From a virus: a DNA stretch of 13,778 nucleotides. Under the pieces are notes generated by a model. That model saw only the letters and a list, made by a program, of their open reading frames with translations. It had not been told where the DNA came from and did no database searches. This document shows, in pieces, positions 3,517 to 12,212 of this stretch; the stretch's first letter is position 1; each line of letters begins with the position of its first letter. A program made the position numbers and the translations under genes. Location of the stretch: UHGV virus genome UHGV-0121437. The stretch is one strand, 5' to 3'.

Positions 3517-4074
3517 TCAGCAGTTCGTCATCAGGGCGTCACCGCCACCGCCGGTGGCTTTGCTGCGGCGCTGCTGGGTCAGACTTTCGGTGTGGTCGAG
3601 ACTGTTTTTCAGGCGGGTGAATGCCTGACTGGTTTCATCCGCCCTGTCAGTTACATCCTGCTTAAGTGCCGAAAAGGCGGTTTCCATCTCAGCAAGGCGC
3701 TGCTCAGTGGCGCTCAGTTTTTCCTGCACATGCTCAGCGACAGCGGTCACCGCTTCATGCACGTCATTCAGACGGGCGTCATCGCTGGCCTGTTTGCGGC
3801 CAAAAATGGATTTCACCTTTTCGGTCAGGGCGGTGAACACGGTTTCAGGCAGGTCTTCAAATTCCAGCTCAACAGGCGTTGCCACTGAAATCAGGTTTTC
3901 AGGGCTTAATTTGAAGCGGTTCAGAGGGTTGTGTTTTGCCGTGCGGCAGAATTCCAGGTATTCCGTGCCGAGGCTTGCCGGGTCATCGGTGACGGCCAGA
4001 CCCACCAGATAACATTTGCCTGTATTGGCAAAGTTCGGCTGAATTTCCATTGAGGTACTCGACCGCCGTGACAT
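3517..4074 (-). pseudogene. O: Capsid scaffolding protein gpO, N-terminally truncated fragment (about 100 N-terminal residues missing)
   Basis: 185-aa ORF whose body ([28 protein letters not shown] ... [11 protein letters not shown]) matches the C-terminal two-thirds of P2 O (about 284 aa as I recall). The first codons (MSRRSSTS) are read from the antisense of Q-derived sequence, so the start is fortuitous. Confidence 0.7.
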
Positions 4075-4162
4075 TCTGGATTACGTCGAGTGCATCAGTA
4101 ACGGCAGATGGTATGAGCCACCGGTCAGCTTTACCGGTCTGGCAAAAAGCCTGCGTGCTGCC

Positions 4163-4990
4163 GTGCATCACAGCTCACCGATTTACGTCAAACGTAATAT
4201 TCTGGCCTCGACATTTATCCCGCATCCGTGGCTTTCCCAGCAGGATTTCAGCCGCTTTGTGCTGGATTTTCTGGTGTTCGGTAATGCGTTTCTGGAAAAG
4301 CGTTACAGCACCACCGGTAAGGTCATCAGACTGGAAACCTCACCGGCAAAATATACCCGCCGTGGCGTGGAGGAGGATGTTTACTGGTGGGTGCCGTCCT
4401 TCAACGAGCCGACAGCCTTCACGCCCGGCTCCGTGTTTCACCTGCTGGAGCCGGATATTAATCAGGAGCTGTACGGCCTGCCGGAATATCTCAGCGCCCT
4501 TAACTCTGCCTGGCTGAATGAGTCGGCCACGCTGTTCCGCCGCAAGTATTACGAAAATGGCGCTCATGCCGGATACATCATGTACGTTACCGATGCCGTG
4601 CAGGATCGCAACGATATCGAAATGCTTCGCGAAAACATGGTGAAGTCGAAAGGCCGCAACAACTTTAAAAACCTGTTTCTCTATGCCCCGCAGGGGAAAG
4701 CCGACGGCATTAAAATTATCCCGCTCAGTGAAGTGGCGACGAAGGACGATTTTTTTAATATCAAAAAAGCCAGCGCCGCTGACCTGCTGGACGCGCACCG
4801 CATCCCCTTTCAGTTGATGGGCGGTAAGCCGGAGAACGTCGGGTCGCTGGGTGATATTGAGAAAGTGGCAAAGGTCTTTGTCCGCAATGAGCTTATCCCG
4901 TTACAGGACAGGATTCGGGAAATAAACGGCTGGCTCGGTCAGGAGGTCATCCGCTTTAAAAACTACTCACTGGACACTGACAACAGCTGA
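4163..4990 (+). pseudogene. Q: Portal protein gpQ, 5'-truncated (first conventional start is GTG at 4163)
   Basis: 275-aa ORF, (V)HHSSPIYVKRNILASTFIPHPWLSQQDF ... YSLDTDNS, matching P2 Q (about 344 aa). The frame is open from 4043 and encodes Q-like [25 protein letters not shown] with no ATG/GTG/TTG before 4163; the authentic N-terminus is absent. Confidence 0.75.
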
Positions 4991-5158: not shown

Positions 5159-5177
5159 GTGCTTTCCCCGCCTCGCC
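5159..5177. other. cos site (19-nt cohesive-end sequence of P2-type phages)
   Basis: gtgctttccccgcctcgcc is the reverse complement of GGCGAGGCGGGGAAAGCAC, which I recall as the P2 cohesive end. It lies just beyond Q, as expected. Confidence 0.7.
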
Positions 5178-5200
5178 CGCCCGCTTCGTGGGGCGGTTTT
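5177..5200 (+). terminator. Terminator-like hairpin abutting cos
   Basis: CCGCCC (5177-5182), 8-nt loop, GGGCGG (5191-5196), then TTTT (5197-5200). Confidence 0.4.
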
Positions 5201-5227
5201 AATGCAGATGCATGTGAACACTCGAGA

Positions 5228-5257
5228 TTGACTGGATAAGACCTAAGGTGCATTAAT
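5228..5257 (+). promoter_or_regulatory. Candidate sigma70 promoter for the AT-rich cassette
   Basis: TTGACT (5228-5233), 18-bp spacer, then TGcATTAAT (extended -10-like, hexamer 5252-5257), about 60 bp upstream of the first cassette ATG. Prediction by eye only. Confidence 0.35.
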
Positions 5258-5315
5258 TTTTTGTTTTTTTACATGCAGTTTGATGCAAGAACATGCCCTC
5301 TAAAGTCTTGGTTTA

Positions 5316-6365
5316 ATGTGCTACACTTTTATACAAACCTATGATAAAAGCGATAAAAAATCTTCCATTTTGGCGAACATTATGACGGATATTGAAACAG
5401 CTCGATGGAACACAGAAAGTGCCGCTTTGTTGGCACTATCAGAAATACATGGCGTTAGTTATTGGACTCTATATAAAGTTGCTCAAAAGGGAATCAGATT
5501 TAGAGACATTGTTACCAGCCAAACATTAGCCAACTTTGAGTATCTACTTGGAGTAAAACTTCATCGCCAACCTTATTATTTGAATGAAGGCAATTGGTCT
5601 GTTTTTCGGGATAGCATGATTTCTACGGCTAAAATATTACTCACACATTATCATAATAGTGGTTACAAAATCATCCACCATGGTTCTCCGAGCTATCCAG
5701 ACAAGTTGAATGACCTGTCTGAGCCGCCTTTCTGGTTGTTTGCTCAAGGCAATGTATCCTTGCTAGATAAAAAGTGTGTTGGAGTTGTCGGCACCAGAAA
5801 CCCAACCGCACTTGGAATTTATTTAACTCAAGCAGTAATCTCGCAATTTATAGATTCGGATTATTCAACTGTAAGCGGTTTAGCATATGGTATAGATCAA
5901 TCTGCACATGAAGCATCCCTGTTATTTAAAATACCGACAATTGCTGTGTTAGGTACTGGCGTAAACTCAAATTATCCCAAAAATAGTGGCGAGATGAGAG
6001 GCCATATTGTAAATAATGGCGGACTGATTCTTACTGAGTATTTACCAAACCAAAAACCATCACAGGAAAACTTTGTTCGTAGAAATAGAATTCAAGCAGC
6101 TTTAAGTGATGTATTGATCCCAGTTGAATGGGGCCTAAAAAGTGGGACATCTCATACTGTGAGATATGCTGCTCAATTAAAAAGAGCGATACTTTGTCCT
6201 TTACTTAGGGGAACTACACCTCAAGAAGAGATTAAACATGCCTTGTCAGAGTACTCAGCTACGATAATGAATATTCCACTATCCGATTTTAAAGACGTGC
6301 AAAGCTTAATTAAATCAGCATCCGGTGTAAAAACACAGCAACTTTCTCTTCTGGGAGATGAATAA
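5316..6365 (+). CDS. DprA/Smf-like protein (helix-hairpin-helix-like N-terminus plus Rossmann/SLOG-type DprA core)
   Basis: 349-aa ORF in AT-rich DNA. Core motifs resemble the DprA Rossmann domain: VGVVGTRNPTALG, VSGLAYGIDQSAHEASL, TIAVLGTGVNSNYPKNS, FVRRNRIQAALSDVLIPVEWGLKSGTSHTVRYA. The start may instead be the in-frame ATG at 5382; neither has a strong ribosome-binding site. Confidence 0.7.
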   Translation: MCYTFIQTYDKSDKKSSILANIMTDIETARWNTESAALLALSEIHGVSYWTLYKVAQKGIRFRDIVTSQTLANFEYLLGVKLHRQPYYLNEGNWSVFRDSMISTAKILLTHYHNSGYKIIHHGSPSYPDKLNDLSEPPFWLFAQGNVSLLDKKCVGVVGTRNPTALGIYLTQAVISQFIDSDYSTVSGLAYGIDQSAHEASLLFKIPTIAVLGTGVNSNYPKNSGEMRGHIVNNGGLILTEYLPNQKPSQENFVRRNRIQAALSDVLIPVEWGLKSGTSHTVRYAAQLKRAILCPLLRGTTPQEEIKHALSEYSATIMNIPLSDFKDVQSLIKSASGVKTQQLSLLGDE

Positions 6366-7641
6366 TATGTATTTAAAGGCAGTTATATTTTCAATCGCAG
6401 ATGTTGTATTACCATTAACATCTAACACTCAACCTCAGGAACTAAAATCTAGAATCGACTCTGAATTACGTAAGTTGTTTGCGTTTTTGTCATCAAAAGG
6501 GATTAAAGTTATCTTCTTGACAAATAAAAATAGAAACGTGAGAACACATGACGGGATCGTAACACTAGACGAATACCTAAAAAGGAAATTCCCAGAATCA
6601 ATTCACTTTTGCCGTGAACTCGACAACAACATACCAGCAAAACAAACAGGGAAGGCCATAGATTTCATCATGGCTGCGTTAGAATTAAAACGAAACGAAA
6701 TGATCTATGTAGGGCGTTCTCAGGAAGACTTACAAGCAGCTACCAACGGGAATACCCTATTTATTAATGCGACCTGGTATGAACCGGTTACTGAGTACGG
6801 TTTTCAATTTTCAGAACCCAAAGAAATCGCTAGATTTATTGATGTCTTTTGCTTAAGAGAGCAGTTGTGGGGATGGCAAGGGCATTTTAATGAAGATGTT
6901 CACTACTACGCCTTAGCACCATTTAGCACATATGTCCCTGAATTTACAATGTATTCAGCCAATGCAAGAGACCTCGCAAAGCTATCGGTTGGAAGCCCCG
7001 ATTTTTGGATAAGATATCTTGGTGCTAGCATTTATTTCTCTGGCTTAAGTGAAGGAGCAAGTTTTATAACCACCTACGTTGGACATAACGCTGAAGATCC
7101 TTATAAACTAGCAAACATTATGGAGCATGACCTAAAAGGTTTAGCAGTCTCATTCAAAGGAAAGTATCTAAAAGATCTATTCTTACGACATACAACAGCT
7201 ATTAAATCACAGCAAGCTCGGATAGCTAAGCAAGAAGTAAACATCACATCTCAAATAAACACCGTTAATTTAAATCCTGCCCCTATTAAAAACCTCATCA
7301 CCGGCGAAAGATATACCAACCCTCCTAAATTGAAAGGTAAGAAAATATTAGTTATTGATGATTTTTGCACTGAAGGAAATGCTCATGAAACAGCCAGAAT
7401 GTATCTAAAAGCTGCAGGCGCAAATGTAATAAATATATCGTGGTTAAAAACCATCAATCGTGACGTTTCTATCTGTGAACCAACTCGCAAGATACGGCCA
7501 TGGGAGGCCAATACACTTGATGTTGATGACATTAACTATGTCGGTACGATTGGTTATGCTGAAAATGTAACTCACGGTAGTGCACCTCAAGTGTTATCAG
7601 AAAAAATTCAACAATATGATAACTGGGACTGGCCACAATAA
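6358..7641 (+). CDS. Two-domain protein: N-terminal HAD-like fold with degenerate catalytic motifs, C-terminal type I phosphoribosyltransferase (PRTase) domain
   Basis: 427-aa ORF in AT-rich DNA. The C-terminal KKILVIDDFCTEGNAHETARMYLKAAGANVI fits the PRPP-binding loop of type I PRTases (four hydrophobic residues, DD, then T-x-G). The N-terminal KAVIFSIADVVLPL, KVIFLTNKN and MIYVGRSQEDLQAATNGNTLFINATW resemble HAD motifs I, II and IV, but the nucleophile position is not Asp. It overlaps the upstream gene by 8 bp; an alternative ATG at 6367 has GGGAG 9 nt upstream. Confidence 0.65.
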   Translation: MNNMYLKAVIFSIADVVLPLTSNTQPQELKSRIDSELRKLFAFLSSKGIKVIFLTNKNRNVRTHDGIVTLDEYLKRKFPESIHFCRELDNNIPAKQTGKAIDFIMAALELKRNEMIYVGRSQEDLQAATNGNTLFINATWYEPVTEYGFQFSEPKEIARFIDVFCLREQLWGWQGHFNEDVHYYALAPFSTYVPEFTMYSANARDLAKLSVGSPDFWIRYLGASIYFSGLSEGASFITTYVGHNAEDPYKLANIMEHDLKGLAVSFKGKYLKDLFLRHTTAIKSQQARIAKQEVNITSQINTVNLNPAPIKNLITGERYTNPPKLKGKKILVIDDFCTEGNAHETARMYLKAAGANVINISWLKTINRDVSICEPTRKIRPWEANTLDVDDINYVGTIGYAENVTHGSAPQVLSEKIQQYDNWDWPQ

Positions 7642-7654
7642 ATTAATCCCATAA

Positions 7655-7690
7655 TTTAAAGTGCCCCCTAATAATGGGAGGCACTTTAAA
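7655..7690. terminator. Strong hairpin, probable (possibly bidirectional) terminator between the cassette and A
   Basis: Perfect 11-bp stem: tttaaagtgcc (7655-7665) pairs with ggcactttaaa (7680-7690), 14-nt loop, A/T-rich flanks; 14 bp after the PRTase-gene stop. Confidence 0.5.
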
Positions 7691-7816
7691 TATTAAGAAG
7701 ATAATGTCATTAAGCGAAATTTAACTATAATTTAAAACATTACAATTATTATTTTTTAAACTTTACTATTACCCAATCCATCAATAAGACCTGTATTTAT
7801 TCGTAATTTAATAGCC

Positions 7817-10072
7817 TTACCACTCATCAATCACTGGATATTTGAATTTTTTATTATCATAAATCACCATCGCCCCACGCGCCAGCGCCTCAAGCTCCCA
7901 TCGCTGAGGCCTGATACCGTTCTGAGCAAGGTCAACGCGGATACGGGTAATTTGCAATCGTTCCGGCCGGGTCAGCCTGGCCGATGGTGCAATTTCATGT
8001 GGTTTTAACGGGCTTCCGTTTCTTTGCTGACGATTTGGTGTTCTCAGGCCGTGTTTTAATGCGCCCCTGAGCACCCTCACGACCTCCGGGTCATTCCATT
8101 CGATAACACCGTCATCAACCAGATTAAGCACTGCTGCGGCGTGTTCAGAAGGTGTGGGAGCCGGTAACGAAGTATCACCACCGGTGAGCTTTCCACAGTT
8201 ATTGACAGGACTCCGAGGCGCGGCGATGCCGCTTTTTAAAGTCAAAGGCTCAACGACCGGCACTTTCGGAACAATGCGCCAGTCCGTCGTTCTGGTGATA
8301 TGAATATGACGCGCGCCGAGATGCGGCGCGTAAATGCCGACCACTCTCCCGACTTCTTCCTCGTACTCGTTAACGTCATCCGACGGACTACGGGCAACCC
8401 TGACAGTCTGACAATCGCGCGGAACATTTGCCCCACCCTGCGCGCTGATATACAACGCAAAATCACCACTGTCTGCGGCAGCGCGTGCAGCCTCGACGCG
8501 TTCGTCAAACTCATCAGCAATGCTGACGCCGCGAGGCAATTTGCGTAGTTCACGGTAAGCCCCCATTGTCGGCAGGCCAACCGTTTTAAATTGCGGAATG
8601 CGCCACGTTGACGCCCATGCGGTAACAGCCGCGGCAGTGTCTTTCAGCGGCCTGCCGGTATCGTTATCGAGCTGACCATCCAGTGCATAGCCATCGATGT
8701 TTTTTGAGATGTATTTCGCGATATATCCCGCAGCACCGCCCCGGTTAAGGTGTTTTGCCTGAAAACGGTTTCGCGCGGCTCCTCTTTCGTCACCATCCTC
8801 TTTGAGCGCATAGCGACGCATGATTTCGATAATCTGGTTACGCTGGCGTGGATTACAAAAAAGCATCATATGCCAGTGCGGCGTTCCGTCGTGGTGTGGC
8901 TCGACGACTCGCAAACCGTAGACCTGTAAATCATTATCCTTGAATGCCGTGCGCATCAGGCTCCAGATGCGGCAGAGATAACGCTGCGCATCCTTTGGAT
9001 TAAATGCCTCATCATTCCAGCCGTGATTTAGCTGGACGGTTTTACTTTCGCCTTTTCCGACCTGACGTGTCGGGTGATACTTTGACGGCGCGGTCAGAGT
9101 GATAAACATCCCCACATCACCCTCTGCGGCGGCGTAACGCTCAATACCGGCGATGGTGTTCATCAGCTCCATCCGGCGAATTTCAGGATTAGAAATACTG
9201 CCCATCACCTTACTGATAAGGTCGATGCGCTCGCCGGTTTCCCTGTTTTCGAGGTCACACGATTTAAGAAATTCCAGATTTGCCTGGCGGCGTGCACGCA
9301 CATCACGAATGGCATGTTTACTGGCATAAGGAGAACGGTCTTTATTGACCTCCCCGACAGCAATCAGTAACGCCTCATGCCAGCGCATACGCTGGCCTTT
9401 AAGCTGATGAGTCCACCATTCATCGTTAAACAGACGGGCAATGGCAGAATATGCCTGCCTCGTGGTCATCTGTCCTTTACGGTATTTTTTCCAGTAGAGA
9501 GGGGAAATATTGAAAGCACGTGCAGCGCCAGCAACATGACCATACAGATGCGCCTGCGCCTCATCTGTAAACAGCGATTCTTTCTCGCCATGTGCATCAA
9601 CCCATGCATCGCAGAGTTCCTCATACATCATGAAAAGCTGCGATGAGATACGGGCGGCAAACTTTTTCAGCTCCTTGTCATTCATTCCAGGCAGGCGCGC
9701 ATAGTGGTCACGCTCTGCCAGAAACAGCAACGACGCGTCGGTGTTCATTTCATGGCGCTGATTCACGCGCTCAATACGCGGCCATAAACGGCGCTGAAAA
9801 GTGGATGTGAGGAAATAAAACCCGTGCACCGGGCTTTTATTGCGCCGGATGTAGTCATAGCGTGAAGTAAACAGCGAGCGCAAAAAGTAAGGCAGGCGAT
9901 TAATCGTGGATAAAACACCTTGCACCTGACGCATCTCGTCACGTGTAAGGGGTCTTTCGCGCCCGACGGCCTCGCGTGGCGCGTTCCATGCATAAGCACC
10001 GGTAAACGTCTCACCGGTGCCTGCGGCAAATGCTGACGGAGGGACAAAACGCCCGGAGGCTTTAACGGCCAT
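7817..10072 (-). CDS. A: Replication initiation protein gpA (rolling-circle nicking endonuclease)
   Basis: The long ORF matches P2 A from MAVKASGRFVPPSAFAAGTGETFTGAYAWNAPREAV. The start is placed at the ATG at 10070-10072; the ORF-track start at 10114 adds 14 codons with no ribosome-binding site. Confidence 0.9.
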   Translation of the reverse strand: MAVKASGRFVPPSAFAAGTGETFTGAYAWNAPREAVGRERPLTRDEMRQVQGVLSTINRLPYFLRSLFTSRYDYIRRNKSPVHGFYFLTSTFQRRLWPRIERVNQRHEMNTDASLLFLAERDHYARLPGMNDKELKKFAARISSQLFMMYEELCDAWVDAHGEKESLFTDEAQAHLYGHVAGAARAFNISPLYWKKYRKGQMTTRQAYSAIARLFNDEWWTHQLKGQRMRWHEALLIAVGEVNKDRSPYASKHAIRDVRARRQANLEFLKSCDLENRETGERIDLISKVMGSISNPEIRRMELMNTIAGIERYAAAEGDVGMFITLTAPSKYHPTRQVGKGESKTVQLNHGWNDEAFNPKDAQRYLCRIWSLMRTAFKDNDLQVYGLRVVEPHHDGTPHWHMMLFCNPRQRNQIIEIMRRYALKEDGDERGAARNRFQAKHLNRGGAAGYIAKYISKNIDGYALDGQLDNDTGRPLKDTAAAVTAWASTWRIPQFKTVGLPTMGAYRELRKLPRGVSIADEFDERVEAARAAADSGDFALYISAQGGANVPRDCQTVRVARSPSDDVNEYEEEVGRVVGIYAPHLGARHIHITRTTDWRIVPKVPVVEPLTLKSGIAAPRSPVNNCGKLTGGDTSLPAPTPSEHAAAVLNLVDDGVIEWNDPEVVRVLRGALKHGLRTPNRQQRNGSPLKPHEIAPSARLTRPERLQITRIRVDLAQNGIRPQRWELEALARGAMVIYDNKKFKYPVIDEW

Positions 10073-10337
10073 ATGAGCCAAAAGCCTCTGAACAACGCTT
10101 GCTGAGTTGCTCAACCTGCGCGTTTAAATCAGCAAAAGACTTTGCGCTTCCGGTCAGAATATCGTGATGCATCAGGCCGGAAACGAGCTGGCTTAATTTC
10201 GGGTAATAACCAGCCACCGCCAGCCATTCCTGACCGGCGTTTTTACCGCTTTCCGCTCTCTTTTTCTCGTGGAGAATAAACTGAAAGCTGTCACTGGTAA
10301 CGACATAACGTTCGCCAATTTCAATACGAATACTCAT
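10062..10337 (-). CDS. Small early-operon protein immediately upstream of A (P2 orf83 position)
   Basis: 91-aa ORF MSIRIEIGERYVVTSDSFQFILHEKKR...; its start overlaps the preceding stop (ATGA) and its end overlaps the A start. Confidence 0.6.
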   Translation of the reverse strand: MSIRIEIGERYVVTSDSFQFILHEKKRAESGKNAGQEWLAVAGYYPKLSQLVSGLMHHDILTGSAKSFADLNAQVEQLSKRCSEAFGSYGR

Positions 10338-11147: not shown

Positions 11148-11648
11148 TTAATGCAGATATTGCTCTGGTTTTACCGACGTCAGAATTGTCGGTGCATACT
11201 CAAACAGGCTGAATAATTCACGTAATGCACGGAATAAAGCATCACGCCAGTAACATGATTCTTCATTAATTCGCCAGTATGGCTGGTTGAATTCTTTTTC
11301 AGTCAATCCGGCATGCATAAATAAAGTACGACGCTGACTGACTGTTAAAAAACTAATATATGCATACTCACTTGCGCCAACCTGACGGCGTTTTGAGAAT
11401 GCCCCACGCAATTCATCAATTGCACATACCAGTCGTTCACGTTCGACATCATTCATTTCTTCAAAACGCATCGTTGCGTGACGCTGTTTTAACTGCGCAT
11501 GGAAGCAAACCGTTAGCCGTTCGCGTTCCATCATCTGATTATAATAATCGCATGTCTCCTGCCAGCGAGGGACGGCAAGATGCTTACCAATTATCCGGCG
11601 CATAGCTGCTGGCTGTTTTTCAACGAGATTAAGCGTCATCACTGTCAT
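11148..11648 (-). CDS. B: Replication protein gpB
   Basis: 166-aa ORF MTVMTLNLVEKQPAAMRRIIGKHLAVPRWQETCDYYNQ..., matching P2 B in length and sequence as recalled. Confidence 0.85.
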   Translation of the reverse strand: MTVMTLNLVEKQPAAMRRIIGKHLAVPRWQETCDYYNQMMERERLTVCFHAQLKQRHATMRFEEMNDVERERLVCAIDELRGAFSKRRQVGASEYAYISFLTVSQRRTLFMHAGLTEKEFNQPYWRINEESCYWRDALFRALRELFSLFEYAPTILTSVKPEQYLH

Positions 11649-11815
11649 TTCCAGACCCTCCGGCTTTTCAGAAAGGTCAGAGCCTTTTTTAACGGACTCT
11701 GTTTTTTGGTGCGGATAATGATTCCCTTACGCCCCTTACCGTGGGTGATGGTGAAGTCAATCGCCCTAGGGCTTTCGTTACGCAGTAACTGAGCAATACA
11801 ACGAGGCTCATTCAT
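11645..11815 (-). CDS. Small basic protein (P2 orf78 position)
   Basis: 56-aa product MNEPRCIAQLLRNESPRAIDFTITHGKGRKGIIIRTKK... with AAGGAG immediately upstream of the ATG at 11813-11815. The ORF-track start at 11839 would overlap cox. Confidence 0.6.
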   Translation of the reverse strand: MNEPRCIAQLLRNESPRAIDFTITHGKGRKGIIIRTKKQSPLKKALTFLKSRRVWK

Positions 11816-11825
11816 ACGGTTCTCC

Positions 11826-12101
11826 TTAACGTGGTTCACCGAGACCTAACCACATCAACCAGCCGTCACGAATCTCTTTAGGGCGGCTTTCATAAGCCAG
11901 TTTTAGTCCGTTATTCCATGCCGGAAGGTATACCCAATATTCACCTGCACGACCTGAAGCTGATTGTGGATCGGTCATATCAATTACAGGCAGCTTTCCT
12001 TTATCAATCATCCGACGAACCGCTCCTGTCGATTTTCCTATTAGTTTTGCGAACTCCTGATAAGGAATCGCATCAGTCATGAGTGTTACTTGCTTGCTCA
12101 T
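11826..12101 (-). CDS. cox: Cox (excisionase and lytic-switch regulator)
   Basis: 91-aa ORF MSKQVTLMTDAIPYQEFAKLIGKSTGAVRRMIDKGKLPV..., matching P2 Cox; divergent from C. Confidence 0.9.
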   Translation of the reverse strand: MSKQVTLMTDAIPYQEFAKLIGKSTGAVRRMIDKGKLPVIDMTDPQSASGRAGEYWVYLPAWNNGLKLAYESRPKEIRDGWLMWLGLGEPR

Positions 12102-12138
12102 GTCGTCCTCTAGCCCTCATGAATTGCGTTTAATGTCT

Positions 12139-12212
12139 TATAATGCCTTTTAGTGCCCACATCCAAGCACTAAACAATCTACATCTAAACTAAATACTAT
12201 TGAGATCTAAAC
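12139..12212. promoter_or_regulatory. Immunity switch region: Pc-like -10 and candidate C-repressor operator repeats over the lytic promoter
   Basis: Perfect TATAAT at 12139-12144 on the plus strand, oriented toward C. Two identical 8-bp direct repeats atctaaac at 12183-12190 and 12205-12212 (22 bp centre to centre). An 8-bp inverted repeat tttagtgc/gcactaaa at 12149-12156 and 12167-12174. P2 C is known to bind two direct repeats flanking the Pe -10. Confidence 0.5.

Follow-up and report, generated by a model that had tools for sequence, protein, structure and literature searches.

A 13,778-nucleotide stretch of viral DNA (UHGV virus genome UHGV-0121437; the whole stretch is called the window here) carries an AT-rich two-gene cassette that we identify, with a probability of about 0.96, as the published ShosTA system, a type IV toxin-antitoxin anti-phage system that sits, as lysogenic-conversion cargo, in a P2-like prophage at its cos-proximal hotspot. 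The system has already been characterised, and the cassette is neither a discovery nor a candidate: it is a textbook ShosTA copy in a textbook location and makes no addition to the list of defence systems. It does serve as a positive control, in that a first-pass annotation made from the raw sequence alone had found a real defence cassette together with its domains, its catalytic loop and its hotspot. Nothing in our analysis contradicts the identification as ShosTA.

ShosTA proteins in the P2 cos-proximal hotspot

Both proteins of the cassette matched PADLOC models over their full length. ShosA, the DprA-like antitoxin, scored 764.6 bits against PDLC02997 (327/327 profile positions) and 284.4 bits against PDLC03961, and ShosT, the toxin, scored 979.5 bits against PDLC03012 (427/427 profile positions) and 179.8 bits against PDLC03962. 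We then compared both with the ShosTA structures (8ZVA, 8ZVB-D, 9VZO, 9W2P and 9W2Q) and found that ShosA was identical at all aligned residues to 9VZO and 8ZVA, while ShosT was identical at all aligned residues to 8ZVB-D and near-identical to 9W2P and 9W2Q. The crystallised proteins come from E. coli APEC O1 (ABJ01487/ABJ01488; PMC11961720) and E. coli KTE181 (PMC12961424). Together, the full-length PADLOC matches and the residue-level identity to PDB entries demonstrate that this is the published ShosTA system and not a relative. Of the features that define the system, those that can be read from sequence are all present: a ShosT-type toxin, a ShosA-type antitoxin, adjacency with shosA upstream, and the intact aspartates of the phosphoribosyl pyrophosphate (PRPP) loop of the phosphoribosyltransferase (PRTase) domain. 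The two genes are laid out as follows.

5382..6365, + strand: shosA, DprA-like antitoxin, 327 amino acids (aa) (PADLOC, PDB, Pfam PF02481, RefSeq)
5382-5663, 5664-6320 and 6321-6362, + strand: shosA domains, respectively SAM, Rossmann/DprA and unstable C-terminal tail (limits from PMC11961720)
6367..7641, + strand: shosT, toxin, 424 aa, from its most likely start (PADLOC, PDB, RefSeq)
6367-6858 and 6859-7638, + strand: shosT domains, respectively HAD-like/pyrophosphatase-fold and non-canonical PRTase (limits from PMC11961720 and PMC12961424)
7357..7362, + strand: PRPP-loop codons of D331/D332 (VIDDFCTEGN), GATGAT, essential for toxicity per PMC11961720

The first-pass annotation had placed two AT-rich plus-strand genes in the P2 old/tin hotspot, with cos on one side and gene A on the other, and both parts of this placement held when composition, the cos match, P2 annotation and alignments of both boundaries were examined. 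Plus-strand open reading frames (ORFs) at 5316..6365 and 6358..7641 are present in the ORF list of the window just as they had been given. The GC content is 0.371 across 5200-7816 and 0.522 in the remaining window, with values of 0.35-0.42 along the cassette stretch and 0.51-0.64 on the structural-gene side. The insert and its flanks are:

5207..7816, + strand: AT-rich cargo insert, ~2.6 kb (P2 alignments, composition, P2 annotation)
5159..5177, - strand: P2-type cos cohesive end, reverse complement of GGCGAGGCGGGGAAAGCAC, left hotspot flank
7817..10114, - strand: P2 replication gene A, right hotspot flank, with its stop codon at 7817

The cos segment at 5159-5177 is an exact match (19/19 nt) to the start of P2 record NC_001895, annotated as cosL, and a fragment of portal gene Q ends at 4990. 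Aligned with P2 at its right end and at the end of gene A, the window shows homology that runs from cos to ~5206 and restarts at the A stop codon; the gene A product is 97% identical to P2 gpA (tblastn) and bears the RefSeq name 'replication endonuclease'. With cos and portal gene Q on one side and replication gene A on the other, the insert has the placement of P2 cos-proximal hotspot cargo. It stands in place of P2 orf91-tin-old, with the cassette oriented as old is. A search of the insert for further small genes returned only ORFs of 22-49 aa that overlap either the genes or the spacers; the RefSeq relative has none of them annotated, and no known RNA family or tRNA was detected in the window by Rfam (gathering thresholds) and a tRNA scan.

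From sequence motifs, the first protein had been called DprA-like and the second a PRTase with an ILVIDDF PRPP loop, and searches with profile hidden Markov models and in defence-system catalogues had been proposed. In such searches, DprA was above its Pfam cut-off in the first protein (PF02481 DNA_processg_A, 201.8 bits against 29.6), PRTase and HAD were below theirs in the second, and PADLOC returned ShosA and ShosT at full length. The PRTase match (PF00156) scored 22.0 bits against a gathering threshold of 26.3 and covered residues 306-360, the PRPP loop, alone; the HAD match (PF00702) was likewise sub-threshold at 21.7 bits against 26.4. The DprA-like and PRTase calls were nonetheless correct; the ILVIDDF loop contains D331/D332, the residues whose mutation abolishes toxicity (PMC11961720).

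A rival reading is that of captured housekeeping genes, a competence DprA/Smf next to a purine-salvage PRTase or HAD phosphatase; in its favour are the Pfam DprA domain, the weak PRTase and HAD matches and the RefSeq name of gene 1, 'DNA-processing protein DprA'. However, ShosA falls under both NCBIfam DprA equivalog cut-offs (TIGR00732, 171 against 191.15 bits; PRK10736, 128.3 against 495), ShosT falls under the Pfam PRTase and HAD cut-offs, and ShosT is toxic and binds no tested purine (PMC11961720). Genomic context points the same way. We surveyed ten loci from species-representative genomes, nine of which include upstream sequence, and ShosA lay directly upstream of ShosT in all of these (9/9), down to 35% identity. 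The P2 Q-A hotspot was used by the Enterobacter locus alone; elsewhere the neighbours were an integrase, a NERD helicase and a type I restriction subunit (L007), a MobA relaxase and a transposase (L008), or ArdC, KwaB, an integrase and a type IV coupling protein (L009). Among the loci examined no competence or purine-salvage context was found, and all are mobile or defence elements. The first-pass annotation had named an ordinary competence or metabolic setting in the chromosome as one outcome that would overturn its own proposal, and this outcome did not occur among these loci. The housekeeping reading was rejected on the NCBIfam and Pfam cut-offs, the published toxicity and the genomic context, and we regard it as vanishingly improbable.

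Among known systems, ShosTA itself (Kimelman 2012; Millman 2022; Rousset 2022, as 'DprA + PRTase') has the same proteins, gene order, adjacency and cos-A location, and only the host element differs, being in the window a P2-like prophage with two internal deletions. PsyrTA/RqlHI shares a DprA-like antitoxin and is grouped with ShosTA by Millman et al., but ShosA matches the PADLOC PsyrA model at 83.6 bits, compared with 764.6 bits for the ShosA model, and ShosT has no match to a PsyrT model. Canonical DprA/Smf resembles ShosA in its SAM and Rossmann DprA fold, single-stranded DNA (ssDNA) binding, dimerisation and RecA interaction. Unlike it, ShosA does not reach the equivalog cut-offs, has no Pfam DprA C-terminal domain, lies in a prophage and functions as an antitoxin. 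Retron PRTase effectors are, like ShosT, PRTase-type toxic effectors in abortive infection, whereas ShosTA has no reverse transcriptase and the partner of ShosT is a DprA-like protein. A retron with a PRTase effector, or another RNA-linked system, was considered for the window and rejected, as the insert contains no reverse transcriptase ORF and the window no Rfam RNA family. With P2 old/tin the cassette has in common the locus between cos and gene A, the orientation of old and the role of lysogenic-conversion defence cargo, but the proteins are unrelated and homology is limited to ~48 bp beside cos. Old is a nuclease of the AAA/OLD family, and the target of Tin is the T-even phage ssDNA-binding protein.

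ShosT toxicity and the trigger of defence

The discovery of shosTA, a toxin-antitoxin pair, goes back to Kimelman et al. (2012). Rousset et al. (2022) surveyed the E. coli locus between gpA and gpQ beside cos, found P2 hotspot cargo to be overwhelmingly defensive, and cloned a 'DprA + PRTase' pair from the hotspot that protects against T7 and lambda (PMC9122126). This is the work behind the DprA-plus-PRTase hotspot candidates that the first-pass annotation had mentioned, and the protection agrees with the abortive-infection-type role it had proposed. The system was validated independently, under the name ShosTA, by Millman et al. (2022), and Pu et al. (2025) reported T7 plating reduced 10^6-fold in its presence (PMC11961720). 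The toxicity, rescue and defence data in the literature come from proteins identical in sequence to those of the window, and not from the window's own copy.

ShosT consists of a hydrolase/pyrophosphatase-fold domain (HAD-like, type III pyrophosphatase; residues 1-164) and a PRTase domain (residues 165-424); it binds PRPP and none of the tested purines (PMC11961720). Its expression perturbs purine metabolism and leads to genome duplications, filamentation and cell death, and toxicity is abolished by D331A/D332A and barely changed by R56A (PMC11961720). Yang et al. (2026) described ShosT as a monomeric non-canonical PRTase with a long pyrophosphate (PPi) loop, and ShosA as a dimer whose RecA binding is sensitive to ssDNA, proposing phage ssDNA as the trigger (PMC12961424). 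ShosA binds ssDNA but not ShosT, co-purifies with recombination proteins, and is intrinsically unstable owing to its C-terminal tail, while the toxin is stable (PMC11961720). It offsets the damage done by ShosT by binding DNA and by way of RecA and further recombination factors.

In the proposed mechanism, infection by T7, lambda or SECphi4/18 would end the protection of the cell by ShosA. This could happen because phage transcription shut-off, as by T7 Gp0.7, halts ShosA resynthesis, or because phage ssDNA or replication intermediates draw ShosA off RecA; pre-existing ShosT would then kill or arrest the cell ahead of phage release. T7 Gp0.7 triggers ShosTA via transcription shut-off (PMC11961720), and phage escape mutants map to single-stranded DNA-binding protein (SSB) and primase-helicase genes. 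An alternative account keeps the identity of the cassette and changes the trigger: ShosA would be a true sensor, its interaction with RecA being disrupted by phage ssDNA or replication intermediates, and shut-off with antitoxin decay would not be the activating step. Yet T7 SSB co-expression gave no toxicity while Gp0.7 did, transient chloramphenicol or rifampicin alone activates ShosTA, and ShosA protein drops during infection (PMC11961720); the shut-off and ssDNA routes may also both operate (PMC12961424). We regard the sensor account as somewhat less likely than not. The first-pass annotation had likewise cast the DprA-like protein as a sensor paired with an effector. This part of its proposal needs correction: ShosA is an indirect antitoxin that neither binds nor activates ShosT, and a sensor role for it is a proposal.

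The two domains of ShosT differ in how well their motifs are kept. In an alignment of ShosT homologues reaching down to 36% identity, the PRPP loop DDFCTEGN was invariant (8/8). On the first strand of the N-terminal domain (AVIFSIADVV), S9 was invariant (8/8) where the HAD nucleophile Asp is expected (IFS-x-x-D), and there was no DxD; that HAD motif I lies on this strand we infer from the known HAD motif pattern. The first Asp of motif IV is replaced by R or N in ShosT homologues, and R56, the residue of the published 'PPase' mutant, is not conserved, being W in distant homologues. In a weak alignment with the HAD phosphatase 2HI0, LTNK, K92 and GRSxxD line up, the canonical motif IV being GDxxxD. 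For the HAD call of the first-pass annotation, the Pfam matches are sub-threshold, the support comes from the published crystal structure, and the canonical DxD nucleophile is absent. Because Ser stands for the nucleophile Asp, the first motif-IV Asp is missing and R56 is variable, the alignment suggests a degenerate HAD fold for the N-terminal domain and not a HAD-type catalyst, which fits its marginal share in toxicity. Going further, the biochemistry of ShosT might differ from the published account: the domain might serve in regulation or ligand binding and not as a pyrophosphatase, with ShosT making a toxic ribonucleotide or modifying a macromolecule, a speculation that we consider rather doubtful.

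Several points weigh against the ShosTA reading in the form given here. Cultures show no early collapse at high multiplicity of infection, which is atypical for abortive infection (PMC11961720). The two published trigger models differ, one invoking transcription shut-off with antitoxin decay and the other ssDNA competition (PMC11961720, PMC12961424). The proposed coupling of a pyrophosphatase to the PRTase appears doubtful as a property of the whole family, since the HAD domain lacks DxD in 8/8 homologues and R56 is not conserved. Lastly, the window copy lies in a degraded prophage, and its putative promoter is a visual match only.

Gene starts and flanking signals

The first-pass annotation had described a translationally coupled gene pair with its own promoter-like element and a strong downstream hairpin. 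The adjacency and co-orientation of the genes stand, but both start codons probably lie downstream of those it had used, which would do away with the 8-nt overlap. The accepted shosA start is M23 of the longer ORF, at 5382: the RefSeq protein has 327 aa, and residue 23 is where both the PADLOC and the PDB alignments start. For shosT, the start is most likely at 6367 rather than at 6358, because the RefSeq protein has 424 aa, the numbering of Pu et al. (R56, D331/D332) fits the second ATG alone, and the spacing from the GGGAG motif suits it; the in-frame alternative ATG at 6358 would give a 427-aa ShosT. With the revised starts, the shosA-shosT gap is 1 nt (TAA-T-ATG), a spacing that is still compatible with translational coupling. 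The signals in and around the cassette are:

6353..6357, + strand: GGGAG Shine-Dalgarno within the shosA 3' end, 9 nt before ATG 6367 and directly abutting ATG 6358
5228..5257, + strand: promoter-like element, TTGACT (5228-5233), 18-nt spacer, TG-n-ATTAAT (5249-5257), read by eye
7654..7691, no strand assigned: hairpin of near-perfect symmetry where shosT and A converge, confirmed by folding

The promoter-like element is visible in the sequence as had been claimed, but a consensus promoter scan did not flag 5228-5257, and promoter-like sites in the region were not above chance (6 found against 8.0 expected). The APEC O1 cassette gave defence under its 'native promoter' (Pu et al., PMC11961720), and the DNA 5' of shosA (5178-5400) is identical in the window and in the intact relative LD27-1. 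The hairpin proved as strong as described, with a folding energy of -21.8 kcal/mol (z = -5.96; 0/200 shuffles equally stable). It was not flagged by a terminator scan and is followed only by TTTAAAT, a weak U-tract; it is plausibly a terminator, and possibly a bidirectional one. The top promoter-like match of the region lies just past the hairpin in the AT-rich spacer (7704-7731, ATGTCA-16-TATAAT, 10/12) and faces the 3' end of gene A, to which it would be antisense. This match probably arose by chance in AT-rich DNA.

Distribution of the cassette and its prophage remnant

To place the window copy among others, we compared it with complete E. coli genomes, phages and plasmids. Among 5,426 complete E. 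coli genomes, 30 contain at least 80% of the cassette with its flanks, APEC O1 being one of them. Identity is at least 99% in 28 of these, and the window DNA is 99.1-99.6% identical to the complete-genome copies, flanks included. The cassette adjoins the replication endonuclease gene in every E. coli match listed, and more than 2,000 further E. coli genomes match the P2 flanks without it. Two P2-like phages with sequenced genomes, Peduovirus P24C9 and Escherichia phage 10W, also carry the cassette and encode an identical ShosT, and plasmid homologues (31-41% identity) occur in Pseudomonas, Bermanella, Piscirickettsia, Rhizobium and other genera. An IS5-family transposase lies inside the ShosTA cassette region of E. 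coli strain 4114 (NZ_CP071328.1), and that copy is possibly disrupted. Separately, in alphaproteobacterial ShosTA-like loci a further DprA-like ORF, shorter than the ShosA homologue, lies ~0.8 kb upstream of it (L011, 5684-6235; L012, 5619-6170; L013, 5684-6235), and these loci may represent a three-gene variant.

The prophage around the window cassette is a remnant of ~14 kb that keeps cos, int, C, cox, B, A, some capsid genes and an intact ShosTA. The sequence of the window spans ~16.0 kb in intact relatives, and two deletions were found. The O-Q deletion spans 2,361 bp relative to intact relatives, with its junction at ~4054-4057 (within 4040-4075) at a 3-nt GGT microhomology. Scaffold gene O is shortened at its 5' end by ~105 N-terminal codons and portal gene Q by its first ~100 nt (~33 codons), and the PO/PP promoter region and the whole of terminase gene P are gone. 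In the D-K deletion, positions 1-113, the 3' part of tail gene D, are joined at ~113-115 to a lysozyme gene K that is truncated at its 3' end (113-541). Here ~15.4 kb is absent relative to E. coli LD27-1, comprising lysA/B/C, R, S, the baseplate, tail fibre, sheath, tube and tape-measure genes, U and most of D. Searches of complete E. coli genomes, metagenome contigs and a gene catalogue found neither junction; the O-Q junction 36-mer was absent from metagenome contigs, and the chimeric O' ORF has no recorded counterpart. The remnant has neither the terminase large subunit nor tail genes and, judged by this gene content, cannot package itself. A helper P2 might mobilise the ~14-kb remnant in the manner of a satellite with ShosTA as cargo, though we think this rather unlikely. 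The retention of an intact ShosTA in so reduced a P2 prophage bears, in a small way, on how prophage-borne defence genes become domesticated.

The same retention, despite the loss of ~17.8 kb of other genes from the prophage, could mean that the pair is mainly an addiction or stabilisation module acting by post-segregational killing, with phage defence secondary. In favour of this, the two genes form a true toxin-antitoxin pair in which the toxin is stable and the antitoxin is not (PMC11961720), and homologues are carried on plasmids and integrative elements. However, the anti-phage phenotypes are direct, with T7 plating 10^6-fold lower (PMC11961720) and protection against lambda, and the cargo of the hotspot is overwhelmingly defensive (PMC9122126). 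Of the E. coli genomes with the P2 locus, more than 2,000 in number, only 30 have the cassette, which also argues for turnover rather than fixation. We consider a mainly addictive role quite improbable, and the two roles are not mutually exclusive; ShosTA as an anti-phage system remains our reading of the cassette.

The intact relative LD27-1 carries extra cargo at two further places in its prophage (L004): a HEPN-domain protein encoded between the genes for tail sheath and tail-fibre assembly (11233-12165), and an opposite-strand hypothetical gene near baseplate gene V (17369-18154). Both sites are P2 variable sites inside the region that is deleted from the window.

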